From positions 1-56,895 of the forward strand of contig JAYENI010000207.1 in the NCBI GenBank assembly GCA_034722015.1: 56,895 nt of DNA. The letters are read 5' to 3'. This stretch comes from Pseudomonadota bacterium. GTDB lineage: Bacteria; Pseudomonadota; Gammaproteobacteria; JAJDOJ01. Of this stretch, positions 593-9,884 are shown one piece after another; position 1 is the stretch's first letter; the number at the start of each line of letters is the position of its first letter. Position numbers and translations under genes: made by a program. The notes under the pieces were generated by a model that saw only the letters and a list, made by a program, of their open reading frames with translations, was not told the DNA's origin and did no database searches.

Positions 593-1768
593 CTATTGCA
601 CCTGGTCGAGGATGAACGCGCTGATCTGTTCCGTAGCCGCGCGCATCGTGCTGACCTCGGTGCGGATATAGCCACCGGTCACCTCGTTATCGGTGACGTG
701 GTTCAGCAGTTTCTTGATGGTCGTGTGCGGAACGCCGGCGACTTCGGCGATAGTGGCGAAGGTTCGCCGGAGATCGTGCCTGCAGAATTTGACGCCGCAC
801 GCTTCGGTAACGCGCGCCATCGCCTTTGCCGGTGTCCATATCGGCTTACCGTCGCGGTCGGCGAATACGTACCCTTTGCGGCGAGGTATCAGGGAATCGA
901 AGTGCTCCACCAGGGCGCCCGGAACCGGCAATGCGCAATCGCTGCCGTTCTTCGTGTCGCGCAGCGTGAGCAGCCGCCCCTCGAGGTCGACATCCTCCCA
1001 GCGCAACCCCCTGGCGGGGATCTCCCTGGTGGCGGGCCTGGCCAGTTCGCTGCCCCGCAGCCCCATGTGGAGCGCGGTCAGGAGGTAGACGCGAGCCACC
1101 GGATTCGATTCCGCCAGGACGGCGCGATACCAGTCCCCCAGGCTATCGGCCGGGATGATCCGCTCGGCACGTCGTGGCTTGTGCCATAGTCGCGCCGAAC
1201 TCAACACGTCGGTCGGCAGCTCCTGGATCGCGTCGATGGCCCGCGCGTGGCGCATCAACGCGCGCAGCACGCGGAAACTCGAATTTGCGGTAGTCTTGCC
1301 CCGTCGAGTCAGTTCGCGATGTCGTGCGCGCACCATGTCGGTGGTGATACGGTTGATCGGCCGATCGATCCAGTCTTCGAACGCCAGATCGATACGGTGG
1401 CGGTAGTCAGCCCGTGTGACGGGCTTCAGGGTGTGTGTCTGGAGGTAGTCGTCGCGGATTTTGCCTAACGTCAGTCCTTCCGCGCGGAGACGGCGCTTCT
1501 CCTCGACCGGGTCGATGCCCGCGGCGATGTCGCGCAGCGCGTTGAGGGCGAGTTTCCGCGCCTGGCCGACGGAAATATCCGGGAACCGGCCGAGCGTGAC
1601 GCGGCGTGCCCGCCCGTTGACGTTCTTCAGGAGCCCGAACGAGCGGGTCCCGGCCGGCGTGATCCTGAGACGGAGCTTCGGGATCTCCTTGTCGGCGTAC
1701 TCGGTCCGCCCATCGGTCGGGACCGGCAGCGCGCGAACGCGCGACTGCGTGAAATTGAAACGCTCCAT
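593..1768 (-). CDS. Tyrosine recombinase/integrase with N-terminal arm-binding domain (P4-like)
   Basis: Catalytic motifs GLRGSEL, RHDLRRTF, LLNH and GGY; N-terminal LRLRITPAGTRSF...RRVTLGRFP arm-binding signature; ATG at 1768 preceded by GGAGGGG. Confidence 0.95.
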   Translation of the reverse strand: MERFNFTQSRVRALPVPTDGRTEYADKEIPKLRLRITPAGTRSFGLLKNVNGRARRVTLGRFPDISVGQARKLALNALRDIAAGIDPVEEKRRLRAEGLTLGKIRDDYLQTHTLKPVTRADYRHRIDLAFEDWIDRPINRITTDMVRARHRELTRRGKTTANSSFRVLRALMRHARAIDAIQELPTDVLSSARLWHKPRRAERIIPADSLGDWYRAVLAESNPVARVYLLTALHMGLRGSELARPATREIPARGLRWEDVDLEGRLLTLRDTKNGSDCALPVPGALVEHFDSLIPRRKGYVFADRDGKPIWTPAKAMARVTEACGVKFCRHDLRRTFATIAEVAGVPHTTIKKLLNHVTDNEVTGGYIRTEVSTMRAATEQISAFILDQVQ

Positions 1769-1779
1769 AACCCCTCCAT

Positions 1780-1811
1780 GGGTCAACTTCGGGTCAACTT
1801 CGGGTCAACTA
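1780..1811 (+). repeat. Three tandem 11-bp repeats GGGTCAACTTC, probable integrase arm-type binding sites
   Basis: Copies at 1780-1790, 1791-1801 and 1802-1811 (third copy imperfect), between the integrase start and the att core. Confidence 0.6.
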
Positions 1812-2255: not shown

Positions 2256-3080
2256 CTATTTCTCGAAAGCCGCCAAGTTGAGCGGCTTTCTTTTTGTGTA
2301 GAAGACGCTCCGCTTGCCGTTCTCCACACGATCCAGATCGTGAATCTCTCCGACGTGCGGCCAGATCAACTCCAGAAACCTTTCCTCCCGGCGTTCGTAG
2401 AACCGTTGCAACGCCCATAGATAGTAATCAACTGCCTGCAGACCAACGCATTTCGCCGGAGTGCTTGAGGTGACGTTGTTCGTGGCCGGGTGCGCGAAAC
2501 CGAAACTTCGCTTGAATTCCTCCCCTGCCTGCTCCAGCGCGGTGCGGAATGCCACGTTCCTGGACTTGTTGCCCCGCCTGGCGAAGCAGATGTTGACGTC
2601 TTCCGCCATGTGATGCAGCTTGCGAAAGAGTTCTTTTACTAGCAGGTCGTACTGCTCATTCTGGCGGTAGCGGTAGCGGTAGCTCGCGTCTCGCTCGTTC
2701 TGCTGCTGCACGTAGGTCGCCAGATCGTGCTTGTCGCGAACGACGGCGTAAAACCGCAGGTCCTTTTCCAGCAACAGAGAGAAAACCTCTCTTCGGATCT
2801 CCGGTAGATCATCCTTGGCATGGAAGGCCACAGCCGTCTTCCGATTCTCCGGCTGCATCGACGGAACGTGCTTGCAATAAGGGTCAGCCAGTAACCCGGC
2901 GCGCAGGGCATCCAGGTCTCGTGCCATTTCGATCGGCGCATCGATTTCCATCTTGCCAAGCATGAAGTAGTTCGAGCAGCCGTTATCGCCGACGATGATG
3001 TGTCCCTTGCGGTTGAACAAGGTCGGATCACCCGCCTCATCCACGAAGTAGTGGATGGTTTCCTTTTCCGCCTCGACCAC
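2256..3080 (-). CDS. DUF3800-family protein
   Basis: N-terminal YFVDEAGD and C-terminal GLQAVDYYLWA motifs typical of DUF3800; GTG start with AGGAG RBS. Confidence 0.8.
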   Translation of the reverse strand: MVEAEKETIHYFVDEAGDPTLFNRKGHIIVGDNGCSNYFMLGKMEIDAPIEMARDLDALRAGLLADPYCKHVPSMQPENRKTAVAFHAKDDLPEIRREVFSLLLEKDLRFYAVVRDKHDLATYVQQQNERDASYRYRYRQNEQYDLLVKELFRKLHHMAEDVNICFARRGNKSRNVAFRTALEQAGEEFKRSFGFAHPATNNVTSSTPAKCVGLQAVDYYLWALQRFYERREERFLELIWPHVGEIHDLDRVENGKRSVFYTKRKPLNLAAFEK

Positions 3081-3087
3081 CGTTTAC

Positions 3088-3540
3088 TCACTCCTTCGCG
3101 CCGAGCGACTCGTCGGCCAGGACCTCGACCAGCTCGGCGATCACCTGCAACTCGCCCTCGTCCTCACCGGTCAGGACGAGGGGCTCATAGTCAGGGTTGA
3201 TCGGTTTCAGGGTGATGCGCGCGTGGCGCCAGGTGTCGCCAACTTTCACCTTCTCGCTTTCGTAGCGCTTGACCGTATAACGCTGACCGGTCTCGGGGTC
3301 GGTGGCGTCGCGGAGCTGGACGAGGACGCTCTTGCCCTGGCGCGTGCCTTCGACCGGGGCGCGGAAAAGGCACCAGGCGCCGTCGGGGATCGCAGGCTCC
3401 ATGGATTTGCCGACAACCTGAGCGACAAAGTTGCCGGGCGCAGGTGGTGGTGTGCCCCGACGTCTACCCACTCGGAGCCGTCGTCCTCGATGTGCTGGGG
3501 ATCGCCGAAGGCACCGGCGGCGGCCTTGAGCGGAACGAGC
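3088..3540 (-). pseudogene. LexA/CI-like S24 autopeptidase module, frameshifted C-terminus of the methyltransferase gene
   Basis: [11 protein letters not shown] (cleavage-region-like) lies in ORF 3246-4622; VVGKSMEP (Ser) and YTVKRY (Lys) lie in ORF 3088-3471; a 1-bp shift near 3435 joins them. Confidence 0.75.
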
Positions 3541-6500
3541 GGCACGCAGGTCTTGTAGCGCTTCTCGGGCGTTGGCTCGACGGTGCGCGGGCGGAACGGG
3601 ATGACTTCGGTGGTCGCAGCCTTGGCCTCACCGGTCTGGAACGCCCCCGGCCAGCCGCCGTGCCGCTCGATGACCTCGTCGATCTCCTGCATTAGGCGGA
3701 TGGTCTCGGTGAGGGCGACAACGATCTTCTGGTAATGGGTGATGTCGTCCTGCGAGAGCGTGCGGCCCTTGCGGTCCTTTAGCCACTTGTGGCAGACCTG
3801 ATAGCCGCCGATGTGGAAGTTCCAGACCTCTTCGGGCACGCCGCTGAAGCCGATCGTGCCGGACTTGGTTGCGCGGTGACCTTCACGGGCGTTGGTCTTG
3901 CCGGCATCGAGCCAGACCGTGTCATCCGACCAGCCGACGCGGCCAACTTCGGGGTTCTTTGGACCGGTGTAGGTGGTGATAAAGTCGTCGAGATTGGGGG
4001 ACTCCATCAGGTGTAGGGCGACGAGTTCGCCGCCACGGCGCGCGAGTTCACGAAATAGATCGAGTCTGCCGGGTAGTGGTATTCGCGGGAAGTCGATCTT
4101 GAGGAGATCTGAGTATCTGAGTCGGTAGGTACCGCTATGAAAGGTAGCGTAGATGAACGCGAGAATTTCGTTGGGATCCAGAACTTCAATGCCAAGAACG
4201 GCTTGAAGGTCTTCGCGGAAGCGGACCGAAAGGTTCACTTGCCGACCGTTCCCCGCAAGGAGCCCGTCTCTGTCTTGGTAGAGAAAAAGCGGCGCCACGT
4301 TCGCGTAGCCGCGATTGCTCCTCATGCTTCGATGATCAACTGGGAACCTCGTGACGAAGAAATGATTGTAACCACCTTCCTCTTGAATAACTTGCCGCAT
4401 AAAGACAAGACCCATATTTGGTCTAAGTAGATGCTGCATGATGTCAGCTGACGCTTGCTGCACGATGGTTGGCTCATAATAGGTGTAACGGTAGTCAAAA
4501 GGCCGAAAAAGGCAGCGGACGATATTGCTGGGATCAAATCGATGGTCACGTTTGTAGCCGACTACCGAAAAATTCCGATAATCATGGATTCCGAAAGCTA
4601 CAGCCAAAGCATCGCCCTGCAACGGGGACTCGAAGTACGATTTGATCCTCCGCGATAGGATGGGCGCATCTATATGTCAAACACATTGTCATCAGGGGAA
4701 CCGTCAGGACAAACTTCGCCTTTGCTTCAGTTGCCGTGAAGGTCTAAGAACGTGAGACGGTTGAAAGTATTAATTAGTGTCTTCCGAACGCCGCGCAAGA
4801 CTCGATTGGTTAGAAATCCATTGTTGGAAATCATGCTAGTGATTCCAATCGGCGTCGTATCAAGAATCCCGATGCCGAGGCCCCAGAACTTCACGCAATC
4901 ATCTTGGAGTATCGTCTCGAACTTTAGCGCGCCCCGTTCCTTAATTTTCTCTCCATCCAAATAGCGAAATGGCTCCACCAACACGACAGCACTTTCATCC
5001 AAGTTGCACGAGTTTATTGAATACGGCGGATTGCCGATTACCAGAGTGAACTGTTGTTTACGTTTAACCTCATTGACTGCTCGCGCCTCATGACCAAGCG
5101 CTTCGAAGAGTCCTGCAGCCTCATCGTCAGCCAATGAAGATGCCGGCTCGAGAGCATTGGTCATGTACACCCGCGCCCGCTCTTCGCTGCCAAAGCGGTA
5201 GCCGGTCTCGTAAAGCTTGAGTCCGATCTTGAGATGAGCGATGGCATACGGCGCCATTAGTAACTCGTAGCCGTGCAATCGCGGCAGAAGGTGTCGCGGC
5301 ACGTACTCGTTCCAGAGCGCGTCGATCTTTTTCTCGCCGCAGCCCTGCTTCTTCCACTTGTCGATCAGCGTCTTGTAGACAAGGTCGATGACTTCAACGA
5401 GGAAGGTGCCGGTACCCGTGGCGGGATCGAGGATCTGGATGAAGTCCTGCTCGGGCGGGACGCCGTCGGGGATCTTCAGATTCTTATGGCGCCCGGCCAT
5501 CTCGCCCCAGGTCGTGGTATCGGCGAGGCCGTCTTCGAGGCCGAACTCGGAACGCAGCAGCTCGTCCACCGAGCGCACGATGTAGGAGACCACCGGGCGT
5601 GGGGTGTAGAAGACGCCGCGGCTCACCTTCTGCTTCTTGTCGTAGGCGGCGAGGAAGTGCTCGTAGAAGTGGATGACCGGGTCTTCCTGGGGATTGCGGT
5701 CACCGAAGTCGCGGACCACCGCTTCCATTTTGGCCTGGTCGAGCAGATCGACGACCTCAGAGATGCCCAGCTCATCAAAGTCGATGCCCGAGCCACCCGC
5801 CTTGCCGCGCCGGCCGCCTACTTTGATGAAGGTCTCCATCAACTCCTTCAGGAAGGGGTTGGTCCGCATGTGGCCGGCGAAATCGTCAACCGTCTTCTTG
5901 TGCGGGTCGGCGATGCGCGCCGAGAGCAGGCCATAGGCGATGGTCTGGGCGTACATATCAGCGAAGCCGCCAGCGTCGAGGTCGTGGACAAGCGCCTCCT
6001 GGAACGCCTTCATCAGCTTGGTCAACGATCCGTGCTCGCTCTTGATGGCGAGCGCCGTCTGAATGCGGTCACGGATCGCGCGGGCCAGCTCCGCCAGGCG
6101 GATCGACAGGTCCTTCGAGGTAGTGATGACCTCTCGGTGACGCAGCGTGAATGCCGAGCGCCACTGCACACGCCAGGCTTCGCCGTCTTCTTCATCCTCG
6201 GGCCAGGCGAGGTGTTCGGAGAGTTCCCTGGCTACGGCGTCGAGGTGGAGCGCGGTGTCGCGGTTGTCCCAGCCGAGCACCTTGAGAGTAGGCAAGTCCT
6301 GCCCATCCCGGGGTGTCGAGAAGTGGGCGAAGCTGATCTGGCGCTCTTCACCCTCGCCATAGTTGGAAACGAACAGCAGATCGTCCGCGGCCCAGGCCTG
6401 ACGCTCGGACTTGTTGGCCGATGCTCGCTTTTTGAGCGCCACCTGACCCAGGATTCGGCGCAGTGCCACGACCGGCAGGCGCTTCGGTTCGAACTTGACG

Positions 6501-6727
6501 AAGAAGATACCCCAAGGCTGACTCGGCGAGAGCGGGCGCAGGCGCTTGATTTCCTGAATTCTGGCGGCATTCCTGGTATCGATGCCGAGTTCCTCGGGCG
6601 TGTACTCAAAGGTCAGTTCCTCGAAGTCGCCTCCCTCGATAGGCCAACCCATGGGATCGCGCAGGTAGCGGACGAGCTGGTCGAAGCTCCTGATCCGGGC
6701 GAGTTCGCTACGGTGATCGATCGGCAT
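3246..6727 (-). pseudogene. N6-adenine DNA methyltransferase with type ISP-like specificity domain, disrupted
   Basis: Motif I ILDPATGTGTFL, motif IV IGNPPY, C-terminal GYQVCHKWLKDRK...HYQKIV; in-frame stops at 4727-4729 and 4670-4672 interrupt DLHGN*SKGEVCPDGSPDDNVFDI*; a frame change follows before ORF 3246-4622. Confidence 0.85.
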
Positions 6728-6731
6728 CGGC

Positions 6732-9700
6732 TCAGCCCTCGTTCAGTTCCATCCAGCACTTGAGTGCGGGCTTCACGCCCACCGGCGCGTCCACGCGCTT
6801 CAGGTAACTGTTCTTGATGTGCTTGTCGATCTTCGAGCGAATCTCCACGAGCGTCTTCTCCCCGGTAGCGCACTTGCGCGGGGTCTCGGACCTGGAGCGG
6901 ATGCTCGCCACCATCGCCCCCAGGTCTTCGATGACGGCGTCGCGGTCCAGGTCATAGAGATACCAGCGGGTGATGCCGGCCTCCTCGGTGAATTTGTTCT
7001 GCTCCTTGTCGAGCGCGGGCAACGCGTAGCAGAAGAAGACACCGTGTATGCCCCTGGCAGGCCGCTTGCGGCCGCTGAAGGTCGCGCCAGGCAGGCCGCG
7101 GAGCCTGGCTTCCAGCCCGGAATCGGCCTGAAGCAGGGCCTGGTATTCGAGGTGCATATCCTCTACCGTCGTGCGGGTGCCCTCGTAGGCGTGGTTGAAC
7201 TCCTTGAGCGCCTCGTAATCGTCCTCGGGGGTCAGAAGCTTTCTGCCTTCGATACCGAGGGTCCGGGAGATCAACAGTGTCTTCTGCGTCACCCTGGTGT
7301 AAAGCGTGAGGATCTCGTTCAACTCGTCGGGCGGCAGGAAGTTCCAGAAGCTCACCCTGCCGCGCGAGGCGACCACCTCGGGGTGGTCCGCTATGAGCTG
7401 CTTCTCTACCTCCGGGTTCATGCGCCGGTCCACGCGGCCGATGCGCTGCATCAGGCGCACCGGATTCCAGTGGATGTCGTAGTTAACCATTCGCGAGGCA
7501 TCCTGCAAGTTCAGGCCCTCGGAGAGCACATCGGTGGAAATGAGAACACGGGTCTCGTCCTGACCCTGCGCGATCAGCTCACCCGATGAAACGCCATTAT
7601 AGTATGGCGCGAAGCGCCGGATAACGTCGGCGCGGTTGGCCTTGGTGGCGCTGTCCACCTGCGCCACGCCATCGATACCGGCGGCATCGAGCTGACGCTT
7701 GAGGTAGCGTGCGGTATCGGCGAATTCGGTGAAGACAAGCACCTTCTGGCCGACCATCTCCTTTGTTTTGAGCAGGCGGATCAGCTTCTTGAGCTTGTCG
7801 TCGTGCTTCGGCTCGAACTTGCGCGCCTCCTCGATGAACTGGACAATCTGATCCAGGTCGAGGAAGGTCTCGGACAGCATCTCCTCGACCTCGTACTCGG
7901 CGCGGTCGAGACGCTCGACGGCATCGAGCATCTCCTGCGGGACGATGTCCTCGTCCACCTCGTCGCCGTCGCCGTCTTCCCCCCACAAGTCGAGTTTCCG
8001 CTGGATCGTGTAACCGAGTATTTCCGCGTGCTGGGCCTTCCAGCGCTCAAGGCGCTTCCTCTCGGCGTCGGTCTCGCTGTGTACCTCGACGAAGGCGAGG
8101 AGTTTTTTCAGAAGACGGTCGCAAGAGAGTTCGAACGCCGCGACGGAGCTTTCGAAGCGCTTCAGGAAGTTGGTCCGAATGAGACCGACCACCTGTTGCT
8201 GCCGGTTCTGCTCGAAGGGGTCGATGTCCTTGTCGGGACCCTTGTACCAGTGTAGTGCGTAGTACATCGGCAGCGTGAAGAGCGGACTCCGGCGCGTGAA
8301 GGCCTTCTCGAACAGTTCCAGCAGCCGGCCGTAGGTCTTGCGGATGGAGTACCCGGCCACCTGGGGCGGCTTGCGTTCGGGAAACGCGGCGGCCTTGCCT
8401 GTCTCGCGGATCTGGCTCTCGCGGGCATAGGCGCGGCTGCGCTGGACTACGAGCTGGCGGAAGATCTCGTCGGTGAAGAGGATTTCCTGCGCCTCGGTCA
8501 TGTGCTCGGCGACGTCGGTCACGTCATGGCCGACACGCTGACGTATGGCCTTCTCCATCTGATTGAAGTGGGCGCGCAGGTTGTTGACGCCAAGGGTCCG
8601 CGCGAAGTAAGTCTCCTCGCGTCGCGTGAACAACTCGACCATGTGCCTGAAGTCGCTCAGCCGGTTGTTGATCGGGGTGGCGGTCAGCATGTACAGGGTC
8701 TTCGCGCGCACCGCGTTATCGAGCAGATCGTACAGGCGATAATAGCGGGACGGCTCCTTGTCGTCGTCGCCATCGCCTCGTGTGCCCGGATTCCGAAAGT
8801 GGTGCGCCTCGTCGATGATCACCACGTCAGCCAACTCGGCAATGCGCTGGAAGCGCTCCGGGAAATCACCCTTTCTGTTCAGGTCCGTGTGACTGAAGAC
8901 GGCAAGATTGCTGAAGTCAGATCCTCCGCTGACGCCCCCGATATGGGGCAACCACTCGCGCAGATGGGGCTCCCAGACGCCTTCCTTCGCGGCCTTCGGG
9001 GCGAAGAGCACGACCCGTTTGCCCTCGTGGAGGATCAGGCGTTCGATGAGCATCAGGCCGACGAAGGTCTTGCCGAGACCCACGCCGTCGCAAAGAAACG
9101 CGCCGCCGTGCTGGCGCGCAATCTTCATCAGCGCCCAGTACGCCTCCTGCTGGTAGCGGTCCAGGCTCGGGAACATCTTTGAGTGGCTTTCGTCCCATTC
9201 GGTGGCGGTCAGCTCGTGACCGCGAAAAAACTCCTGGAGGGCCTTTGCGTAGACATCGAAAGGCGTGTAGAGCTGGATGTGGCGCGAGACGGTCTCGATA
9301 ATCGCGTCCGTGATATCCGAGGCATCTTCCCAGTGTTCCTCGAACCACTCCTGAAGCTGGGCCACCTCGCGGGCACTCTGCACCTGAATGTTCAGCTCGA
9401 TGTTTTTGGTCAGGCCGGGTGCGGTGAAGTTGCTCGAACCCACCAGTGCCTGGGCGCCAACCACCTCGAGCTTGGCGTGGGTAATGTATGCCTTGGCATG
9501 GAACTTGTCTCGGTCGTAGACGCGGCACTCGATCTGTCGTGAACGCAGCGCCTCAAGAATAGCCTTGACACCACGCAGAAACGGGTTGGCCTGTTTGTCG
9601 GCTTCAAGGCTGCCGTCGAGTACCTCAACGGCACGCAAGCGGACGGCTTCCAGAAGCGCCTTGCGCGTGCGGTGCGACGTCTCCGCACCCATCAGAATCC

Positions 9701-9884
9701 TGATTTTCTCCAGCGGCTGCCATTTCTGGTCGAGCGCAAGCAACGCGCCGACCTCGAAGTATCCGGTGGCAATGTCGAACGCGTTGGCGATGCCACACCA
9801 CTCTTCGAGATAACGGAGTCCCGTCCACCCGGAGATGCTGTTATCGACGATGAAGAGGTCGCGGCCCCGGTGCTCTTGGCTCAT
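6732..9884 (-). CDS. PLD-family nuclease domain fused to an SNF2-like SF2 helicase
   Basis: FHAKAYI...GSSNFT (PLD HxK motif), DGVGLGKT, DEAHH, TATP, STDVLSEGLNLQ and QRIGRVDR helicase motifs. Confidence 0.9.
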   Translation of the reverse strand: MSQEHRGRDLFIVDNSISGWTGLRYLEEWCGIANAFDIATGYFEVGALLALDQKWQPLEKIRILMGAETSHRTRKALLEAVRLRAVEVLDGSLEADKQANPFLRGVKAILEALRSRQIECRVYDRDKFHAKAYITHAKLEVVGAQALVGSSNFTAPGLTKNIELNIQVQSAREVAQLQEWFEEHWEDASDITDAIIETVSRHIQLYTPFDVYAKALQEFFRGHELTATEWDESHSKMFPSLDRYQQEAYWALMKIARQHGGAFLCDGVGLGKTFVGLMLIERLILHEGKRVVLFAPKAAKEGVWEPHLREWLPHIGGVSGGSDFSNLAVFSHTDLNRKGDFPERFQRIAELADVVIIDEAHHFRNPGTRGDGDDDKEPSRYYRLYDLLDNAVRAKTLYMLTATPINNRLSDFRHMVELFTRREETYFARTLGVNNLRAHFNQMEKAIRQRVGHDVTDVAEHMTEAQEILFTDEIFRQLVVQRSRAYARESQIRETGKAAAFPERKPPQVAGYSIRKTYGRLLELFEKAFTRRSPLFTLPMYYALHWYKGPDKDIDPFEQNRQQQVVGLIRTNFLKRFESSVAAFELSCDRLLKKLLAFVEVHSETDAERKRLERWKAQHAEILGYTIQRKLDLWGEDGDGDEVDEDIVPQEMLDAVERLDRAEYEVEEMLSETFLDLDQIVQFIEEARKFEPKHDDKLKKLIRLLKTKEMVGQKVLVFTEFADTARYLKRQLDAAGIDGVAQVDSATKANRADVIRRFAPYYNGVSSGELIAQGQDETRVLISTDVLSEGLNLQDASRMVNYDIHWNPVRLMQRIGRVDRRMNPEVEKQLIADHPEVVASRGRVSFWNFLPPDELNEILTLYTRVTQKTLLISRTLGIEGRKLLTPEDDYEALKEFNHAYEGTRTTVEDMHLEYQALLQADSGLEARLRGLPGATFSGRKRPARGIHGVFFCYALPALDKEQNKFTEEAGITRWYLYDLDRDAVIEDLGAMVASIRSRSETPRKCATGEKTLVEIRSKIDKHIKNSYLKRVDAPVGVKPALKCWMELNEG

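Follow-up and report, generated by a model that had tools for sequence, protein, structure and literature searches.

What does a LexA-like self-cleavage module do at the end of a restriction methyltransferase? The question is raised by a 56,895-nucleotide stretch of DNA from a Pseudomonadota bacterium (contig JAYENI010000207.1), here called the window, whose minus strand carries a Type ISP-like methyltransferase gene with an S24 peptidase domain behind its target-recognition part. The autoprotease is of a known kind, and the regulatory setting in which it occurs here is undescribed. It is proposed here to act as a self-cleaving fuse, most likely triggered by RecA filaments, that shuts restriction off, a reading to which we give about an even chance. 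No account of an S24 domain fused to a restriction or defence enzyme was found in the literature, including a 2025 review of restriction-modification (R-M) systems, a 2026 paper on BREX diversity and the YprA/ARMADA preprint, although such an absence is not proof.

A complete S24 autopeptidase apparatus

An earlier inspection of the letters alone (the sequence-only reading) had pointed to three motifs behind the ISP-type C-terminus, an Ala-Gly cleavage region, GKSMEP and TVKRY. All three are present on the minus strand, with the cleavage region at 3545..3513 (3545..3504 in its longer form). Comparison with Pfam assigns the segment 4640..3453 to Type_ISP_C (PF18135, E = 2.2e-65) and the segment 3438..3091 to Peptidase_S24 (PF00717; E = 1.7e-8, with 34.6 bits where the cut-off is 23.3); the gene also matches PF02384 and PF07669. 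The relatives likewise score above the curated PF00717 cut-off. The KAAAG motif lies at 3527..3513, 38 residues before the serine in the read-through protein, and the codons of the Ser (3405-3403, in GKSMEP) and the Lys (3270-3268, in TVKRY) stand in a frame that is one base off the frame of the cleavage site.

The module comprises approximately 160 residues with a substrate strand L-[KR]-A-A-A/G (the slash marks the predicted scissile bond), a Ser nucleophile in GxSMEP and a Lys base in TVKRY. These elements are close to invariant. Among non-redundant relatives of all carrier classes, aligned to a profile, the Ser is kept in 337 of 341 and the Lys in 358 of 363, and around the predicted bond the P2 Ala (310/312), the P1 Ala (307/312) and the P1' Gly (304/312) are similarly retained. 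Conservation of the dyad and of the Ala-Gly site, on which the sequence-only reading depended, thus amounts to 97-99%.

In E. coli LexA the cleaved bond is Ala84-Gly85 and the catalytic residues are Ser119 and Lys156. The spacing and the GxSM, TVKR and LxPxNxxFxPI motifs of the module correspond to those of E. coli LexA. The module shares with the C-terminal domains of LexA, cI and UmuD (MEROPS S24, PF00717) the fold, the Ser (GxSM) and Lys (TVKR) dyad and the LxPxNxxFxPI strand, and with LexA also the Ala-Ala at P2-P1; the Ala-Gly bond precedes the Ser by 35 residues in E. coli LexA compared with ~38 in the module. Unlike LexA, the module has a hairpin inserted around DPETG and the additional invariant residues C66, R76, D90, W113 and H115 (A1 numbering).

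The relationship to solved S24 proteins is distant at the level of sequence. A phmmer search of the PDB sequences with the C-terminal 189 residues returned no match, and a profile search of the PDB gave weak matches, to LexA and UmuD only (best E = 0.02). A fold search was therefore needed. The AlphaFold2 model of the module, computed from a 29-sequence alignment, has a predicted local distance difference test (pLDDT) score of 88.2 and a predicted template modelling (pTM) score of 0.83. Foldseek places LexA, cI (lambda) or UmuD' at every one of PDB ranks 1-31, with probability 1.00 and a target-normalized TM-score of up to 0.75.

No N-terminal helix-turn-helix or winged helix-turn-helix DNA-binding domain is present; the region upstream of the module is methyltransferase and target-recognition domain here, and HsdR, helicases or nucleases elsewhere. 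Because it lacks a DNA-binding head, the module belongs to family S24 outside the LexA/cI repressors. Its 'substrate arm' is, unlike that of LexA or cI, a restriction or defence enzyme of 1000-2000 residues. Public annotations of these proteins are machine labels, such as 'type ISP restriction/modification enzyme' or 'SOS-response transcriptional repressor LexA'; the latter, a Joint Genome Institute (JGI) label, is a domain-level misnomer for enzymes of ~1300 residues.

Intact relatives and the optional tail

Intact fusions, which the sequence-only reading had proposed to look for, are abundant. The last 189 residues of the read-through protein were the only part scored in this search, with candidate length taken from the whole protein, and 2124 protein clusters match this tail (E ≤ 0.001). 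PF00717 and PF18135 occur on one protein in 119 of the 120 best tail matches, mostly together with PF02384 and PF07669, and the median length is 1306 residues. The possibility that the S24 domain is always encoded by a separate gene is thereby refuted.

The tail is optional even among close homologues. The N-terminal 666 codons of the window's gene are 72-78% identical to intact relatives of ~1300 residues, and a search with the corresponding 666 residues showed that 42 of the 107 closest full-length methylases carry the S24 tail and 65 do not. Most of the tail-less enzymes end a few residues past HGGWPGAF(Q), some have another C-terminal extension and a few are frameshifted. The module thus has a sharp boundary, and its gain or loss separates near-identical enzymes.

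This pattern bears on the possibility that no regulated cleavage takes place and that the S24-like domain serves dimerization or docking, by pairing two enzymes or by binding the partner protein encoded next to the methylase (see below) or a RecA filament. The C-terminal domains of LexA, cI and UmuD are established dimerization domains, and the five conserved residues that LexA lacks could form a binding surface. However, a Ser, a Lys and an Ala-Gly pair that scarcely vary in any host class would be difficult to account for if the domain were not catalytic, and sister enzymes that are more than 73% identical manage without the domain, which indicates that it is not needed for assembly. A purely structural role is accordingly considered improbable.

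A second optional C-terminal extension of ~170-190 residues exists in the same methylase family. It follows the S24 tail in P0120, replaces it in P0271, P0310, P0342 and P0362, and ends ...FLKEQFLASLxGRxWxxREEAxRxFARWLGFRRTGPxI...LINGLxRxGRLE.

Distribution of the module among restriction and defence enzymes

The module extends well beyond methylases. A phmmer search of 1.84 billion representative proteins with the 115-residue S24 core of the window gave 1758 matches, 959 of them below 1e-10. The matches have the whole cassette in common, namely RYxTCVPLxxLKAAAGxFG, approximately 25 further residues and MFVAQVVGxSMEP. According to Pfam analysis of the longer matches, the cassette stands at the C-terminus of HsdR-like proteins, of MmeI-type enzymes, of an LlaJI-type endonuclease, of ResIII/DEAD+MerR helicases, of a HIT+PLD+SNF2 protein, of Schlafen-group-3/DUF2075 helicases (one with NERD), of a methyltransferase+HNH protein and of giant DEAD+MZB(DUF1998)+REase helicases.

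When one genome per species was scanned, the module turned up in at least 560 genomes, the best 80 of which are all from uncultured bacteria of more than 12 phyla. The carriers in the best 80 loci include 41 Type I HsdR proteins of a first family, nine of a second HsdR family, 19 ISP-like methylases, two giant YprA-type helicases and one Schlafen-type protein. In the second HsdR family the module occupies two positions: it is C-terminal in L058:4836-8450 and internal in L050:7068-10679, where, as in L062, L071, L073, L083 and L059, it lies between the HQFHAV motif (Q-motif) and ATPase motif I. The host proteins of L050 and L058 are 59-71% identical, and their modules 64%.

A tree of 86 modules (149 columns) is poorly resolved, with 53 of 83 forks left open. 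Carrier class changes 27 times on this tree, compared with a minimum of 10 and with 54 when labels are shuffled, which supports only a description of the carrier classes as clustered but interleaved. The well-supported branches nevertheless force at least two acquisitions within the second HsdR family (family B). The module is an optional, mobile accessory on DNA-targeting enzymes that are mostly driven by nucleoside triphosphates (NTPs).

These results divide the claim of the sequence-only reading that self-cleavage would provide an unusual post-translational control of an R-M methylase. The core of the claim is well founded as a prediction, as the apparatus is fused to the enzyme, conserved and LexA-like in fold. 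The link to methylases does not hold: the module is not specific to them and is an optional, portable element on many restriction and defence enzymes.

Another conceivable scheme is UmuD-like: the active product would be the S24 core of ~140 residues, freed by cleavage and acting, for instance, on recombination or the SOS response by binding RecA filaments, and the large enzyme would be a mere carrier. UmuD is established to be activated by removal of an N-terminal piece, and the module is better conserved than its carriers, with 64-80% identity across unrelated enzymes. On the other hand, free-standing full-length copies were not clearly seen, most short matches look like fragments of broken genes, and the scheme offers no reason for the restriction of the module to nuclease and helicase carriers. 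It is regarded as very improbable.

A proposed off switch for restriction

According to the reading favored here, the module would cut its own Ala-Gly bond (KAAA/G) in the manner of LexA, cI and UmuD, and docking on a filament of RecA and single-stranded DNA (ssDNA) would be the most likely trigger. At breaks in the cell's own Chi-containing DNA, RecBCD would load RecA and the resulting filament would trigger cleavage. The cleaved enzyme would be left with the end ...L-K/R-A-A-A-COOH, resembling the ssrA tag and the VAA terminus that LexA has after cleavage, and an enzyme ending in ...AAA-COOH would go to ClpXP for degradation. Where the module lies inside HsdR, the cut would split the protein between nuclease and motor. 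The outcome would be a built-in form of restriction alleviation.

Both the ssrA tag and this LexA terminus are recognized by ClpXP, and studies of 2003 by Neher and co-workers and by Flynn and co-workers reportedly describe the C-terminal degrons that ClpX recognizes. RecBCD loads RecA at Chi sites, which favors host over phage DNA. The off direction is favored because a cut at the internal module of HsdR would separate nuclease and motor, because the AAA end resembles a ClpX C-terminal degron and would doom the enzyme rather than just its tail, and because loading of RecA at Chi means that filaments report breaks in self-DNA rather than the presence of phage DNA. It is favored further because translocating restriction enzymes are documented to need proteolytic alleviation once DNA has been damaged, as is established for Type I enzymes, which are shut off by proteolysis upon damage to the host chromosome or its under-methylation (PMC4231737, PMC12707154, 10.1101/2024.10.21.619520). 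The likeness to Type I restriction alleviation, in which ClpXP degrades EcoKI HsdR and Lon-like proteases act in P. aeruginosa, would be functional, namely a post-translational proteolytic shut-off of an ATP-driven enzyme. EcoKI has no self-cleaving domain and ClpXP recognizes its translocating complex; here the sensor-protease would be built in.

Several observations weigh against this proposal. In the AlphaFold2 model KAAAG adopts a short helix with moderate confidence (pLDDT ~76), and the next 10 residues score ~55. In the split ISP-like systems the tail sits on the methylase/recognition subunit, and the EcoKI precedent predicts the nuclease-motor subunit. C-terminal cleavage removes the tail alone, so that any effect on activity needs the putative degron step or a steric role. 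Finally, every member found comes from uncultured bacteria.

The same apparatus could work in the opposite direction. The S24 tail or insert would then auto-inhibit the enzyme, and RecA filaments on phage ssDNA or on replication intermediates would trigger the cleavage that licenses restriction; as a corollary, the tail-less sister enzymes would be constitutively active. This scheme accommodates a module that, with its catalytic residues, is conserved across many defence enzymes and yet is optional. Infection-triggered activation is frequent in defence systems generally, and an internally nicked chain can remain assembled and turn active. However, a cut between nuclease and ATPase motif I, the site of the module in one HsdR family, is likelier to disable the enzyme. 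Moreover, R-M needs no infection signal, as methylation already separates self from non-self, and the Chi-directed loading of RecA favors host DNA as the source of the filaments. An on switch is thus judged rather unlikely.

If the off direction is correct, its scope may be wider than the methylase family. It is possible, and suggested here only tentatively, that a horizontally shuffled clade of LexA-type self-cleaving domains serves NTP-driven restriction and defence nucleases in general as a safety fuse, acting through RecA-triggered Ala-Gly cleavage, the KAAA-COOH end and removal by ClpXP. Such a fuse would take in Type I HsdR, split Type ISP, MmeI-like, LlaJI-like, Schlafen-type and YprA-type helicase enzymes. 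How a host is spared by its own restriction enzymes during lapses of methylation or during DNA repair is understood only for a few Type I systems of E. coli and Pseudomonas, where host proteases are required. If hundreds of enzymes from many phyla carried a LexA-type autoprotease of their own, this would be a new route by which the RecA-filament signal of damage is linked to nuclease activity at the protein level. The result would be an autoimmunity feedback loop contained within the enzyme, and restriction alleviation could be read from sequence in bacteria other than E. coli. The natural presence or absence of the tail (42 versus 65 of 107) and the two positions of the module in one HsdR family are useful for experiments.

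State of the gene in the window

The methylase gene of the window is a genuine pseudogene that contains no uninterrupted reading frame (Table 1). At least four lesions are present, comprising two in-frame stops and two frame changes, with a loss of ~70 codons. In a tblastn comparison with the intact relative P0048, residues 1-712 match frame -3, residues 783-1220 frame -2 and residues 1222-1331 frame -1; the ~70 residues lost relative to P0048 accompany the frame change near 4655. The missing base that the sequence-only reading had placed near 3435 was located at 3434-3435 from the frame of the relatives, and in a contig from a relative of ~93% identity an additional C behind 3433 restores the frame.

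Table 1 Features of the S24-tailed methylase locus in the window.
Feature	Position	Strand	Remarks
Methyltransferase/target-recognition gene	6727..3091	minus	Type ISP-like; extends beyond the usual end HGGWPGAFQ
N-terminal 666 codons, N6-adenine methyltransferase	6727..4730	minus	Pfam N6_Mtase and Eco57I; NPPY at 5035..5018; ends LDLHGN
Lesion zone	4729..4604	minus	TGA at 4729-4727; 18-codon remnant SKGEVCPDGSPDDNVFDI; TAG at 4672-4670; frame change (three-frame translation)
Target-recognition domain (Type ISP C-terminal specificity domain)	4655..3636	minus	Ends HGGWPGAFQ, 3662..3636; similarity to the specificity domain extends from ~4655 to 3456
Linker and cleavage-site strand	3635..3504	minus	Predicted scissile Ala-Gly codons 3518-3513; same frame as Type_ISP_C
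One-base deletion	3434..3435	minus	One G of CCG-GGC; parts the cleavage site from the peptidase core
S24 peptidase core	3435..3091	minus	GKSMEP at 3411..3394; TVKRY at 3276..3262; ends AKE; stop codon 3090-3088
PLD (HKD) nuclease and SNF2 helicase gene	9884..6735	minus	1050 residues, apparently intact; Pfam PLDc_2, ResIII, SNF2-rel_dom, Helicase_C
DUF3800 gene	2256-3080		Starts 7 nucleotides past the methylase stop
Tyrosine integrase gene	593-1786		Arm-DNA-bind_3 and Phage_integrase; adjoins the edge of the defence genes

Contigs from two samples reproduce the lesions. In a comparison with contigs assembled from public brine-metagenome runs, a ~27x contig, presumably from the source sample, is identical across 2900-7000 (4.1 kb), and the frameshift recurs in a 243-nucleotide contig from a second sample of the same study. 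A functional gene, in which the frameshift and the stops would be assembly errors or programmed recoding, might be argued from the position of the missing base in a short C/G run and from the indel errors that metagenome assemblies can carry. Such an explanation would have to account for four independent lesions, two of them stop codons, for ~70 missing codons, for the identity of the 27x contig over 4.1 kb and the repeated frameshift, and for similar breakage in many relatives. The several lesions and the reproduced contigs rule out assembly error and recoding, and a working gene in the window is extremely improbable. As the gene is dead, the proposed switch does not operate at this locus; the practical message for the window itself is modest, and the interest rests on the family-level finding.

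The G+C content is 0.50 in window positions 4010-5160, compared with 0.62 for the window and for the remainder of the gene. The low-G+C stretch covers the variable target-recognition part, and both premature stops and the deletion with its frame change lie in it or beside it.

Interrupted genes recur in the family. Among the species-representative genomes, at least seven of 19 S24-bearing methylases (L008, L015, L016, L017, L037, L040 and L069) and approximately five of 41 HsdR genes (L026, L038, L049, L060 and L063) are interrupted or truncated away from contig ends, perhaps through decay or long-read indel errors. In L016:7040-8462 the initial 306 residues of the PLD-SNF2 protein run almost straight into the S24 tail, and in P0076 (1186 residues) ~640 PLD-SNF2 residues are joined to the terminal part of the recognition domain and the S24 tail; these collapsed or chimeric genes are probably deletion products. 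Public collections often hold frameshifted gene calls for this GC-rich ISP-like methylase family, and the database proteins P0273, P0339, P0347, P0356 and P0329 end in Arg/Pro-rich wrong-frame sequence.

Partner gene and genomic neighborhood

The partner gene that encodes the PLD-SNF2 protein stops 4 nucleotides ahead of the methylase start. Its product is ~80% identical, end to end, to the partner proteins of the intact relatives, and PADLOC lists it as a candidate 'HKD+Snf2' protein (C3a139, 1.3e-59). In L001 and in L002-L004 the methylase is likewise preceded by a PLD-SNF2 gene of 1048-1049 residues, with a 4-nucleotide gap where both ends are on the contig. PADLOC assigns the intact relative of the methylase to 'REase_MTase_IIG' (PDLC03610, 2.7e-213), a model that stops before the tail. 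The description that fits best is a split Type ISP-like R-M system of two genes, with the nuclease and motor on one protein and the methylase and recognition functions on the other.

The methylase resembles the Type ISP enzymes LlaGI and LlaBIII in that a gamma-class N6-adenine methyltransferase with NPPY is joined to Type_ISP_C and works with a superfamily 2 (SF2) translocase and a nuclease. Unlike in Type ISP enzymes, which are single polypeptides, the nuclease and motor of the window and its relatives reside on the separate upstream protein. The nuclease is of the PLD/HKD type rather than Mrr-like, the motor is SNF2-like and the S24 tail is an optional addition.

Assignment to DISARM class 1 was rejected, as the helicase reaches 129 bits where the NCBIfam model for DrmD demands 610, the only NCBIfam match of the methylase, to MAD2, scores 21.8 bits against a cut-off of 720, and the loci of the relatives are two-gene units without DrmA or DrmB. 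Membership in BREX was likewise rejected on scores and locus content.

A tyrosine integrase gene adjoins the defence genes. ARAGORN detected no tRNA gene in the window, including beside the integrase, and the integration target is not evident. A conserved four-gene operon that includes the downstream DUF3800 gene is unsupported, as the downstream genes differ in L001 and in L002-L004. The position of DUF3800 is taken in L001/L002 by a 260-residue gene on the opposite strand or by a 1254-residue AAA_30/UvrD_C_2 helicase gene.

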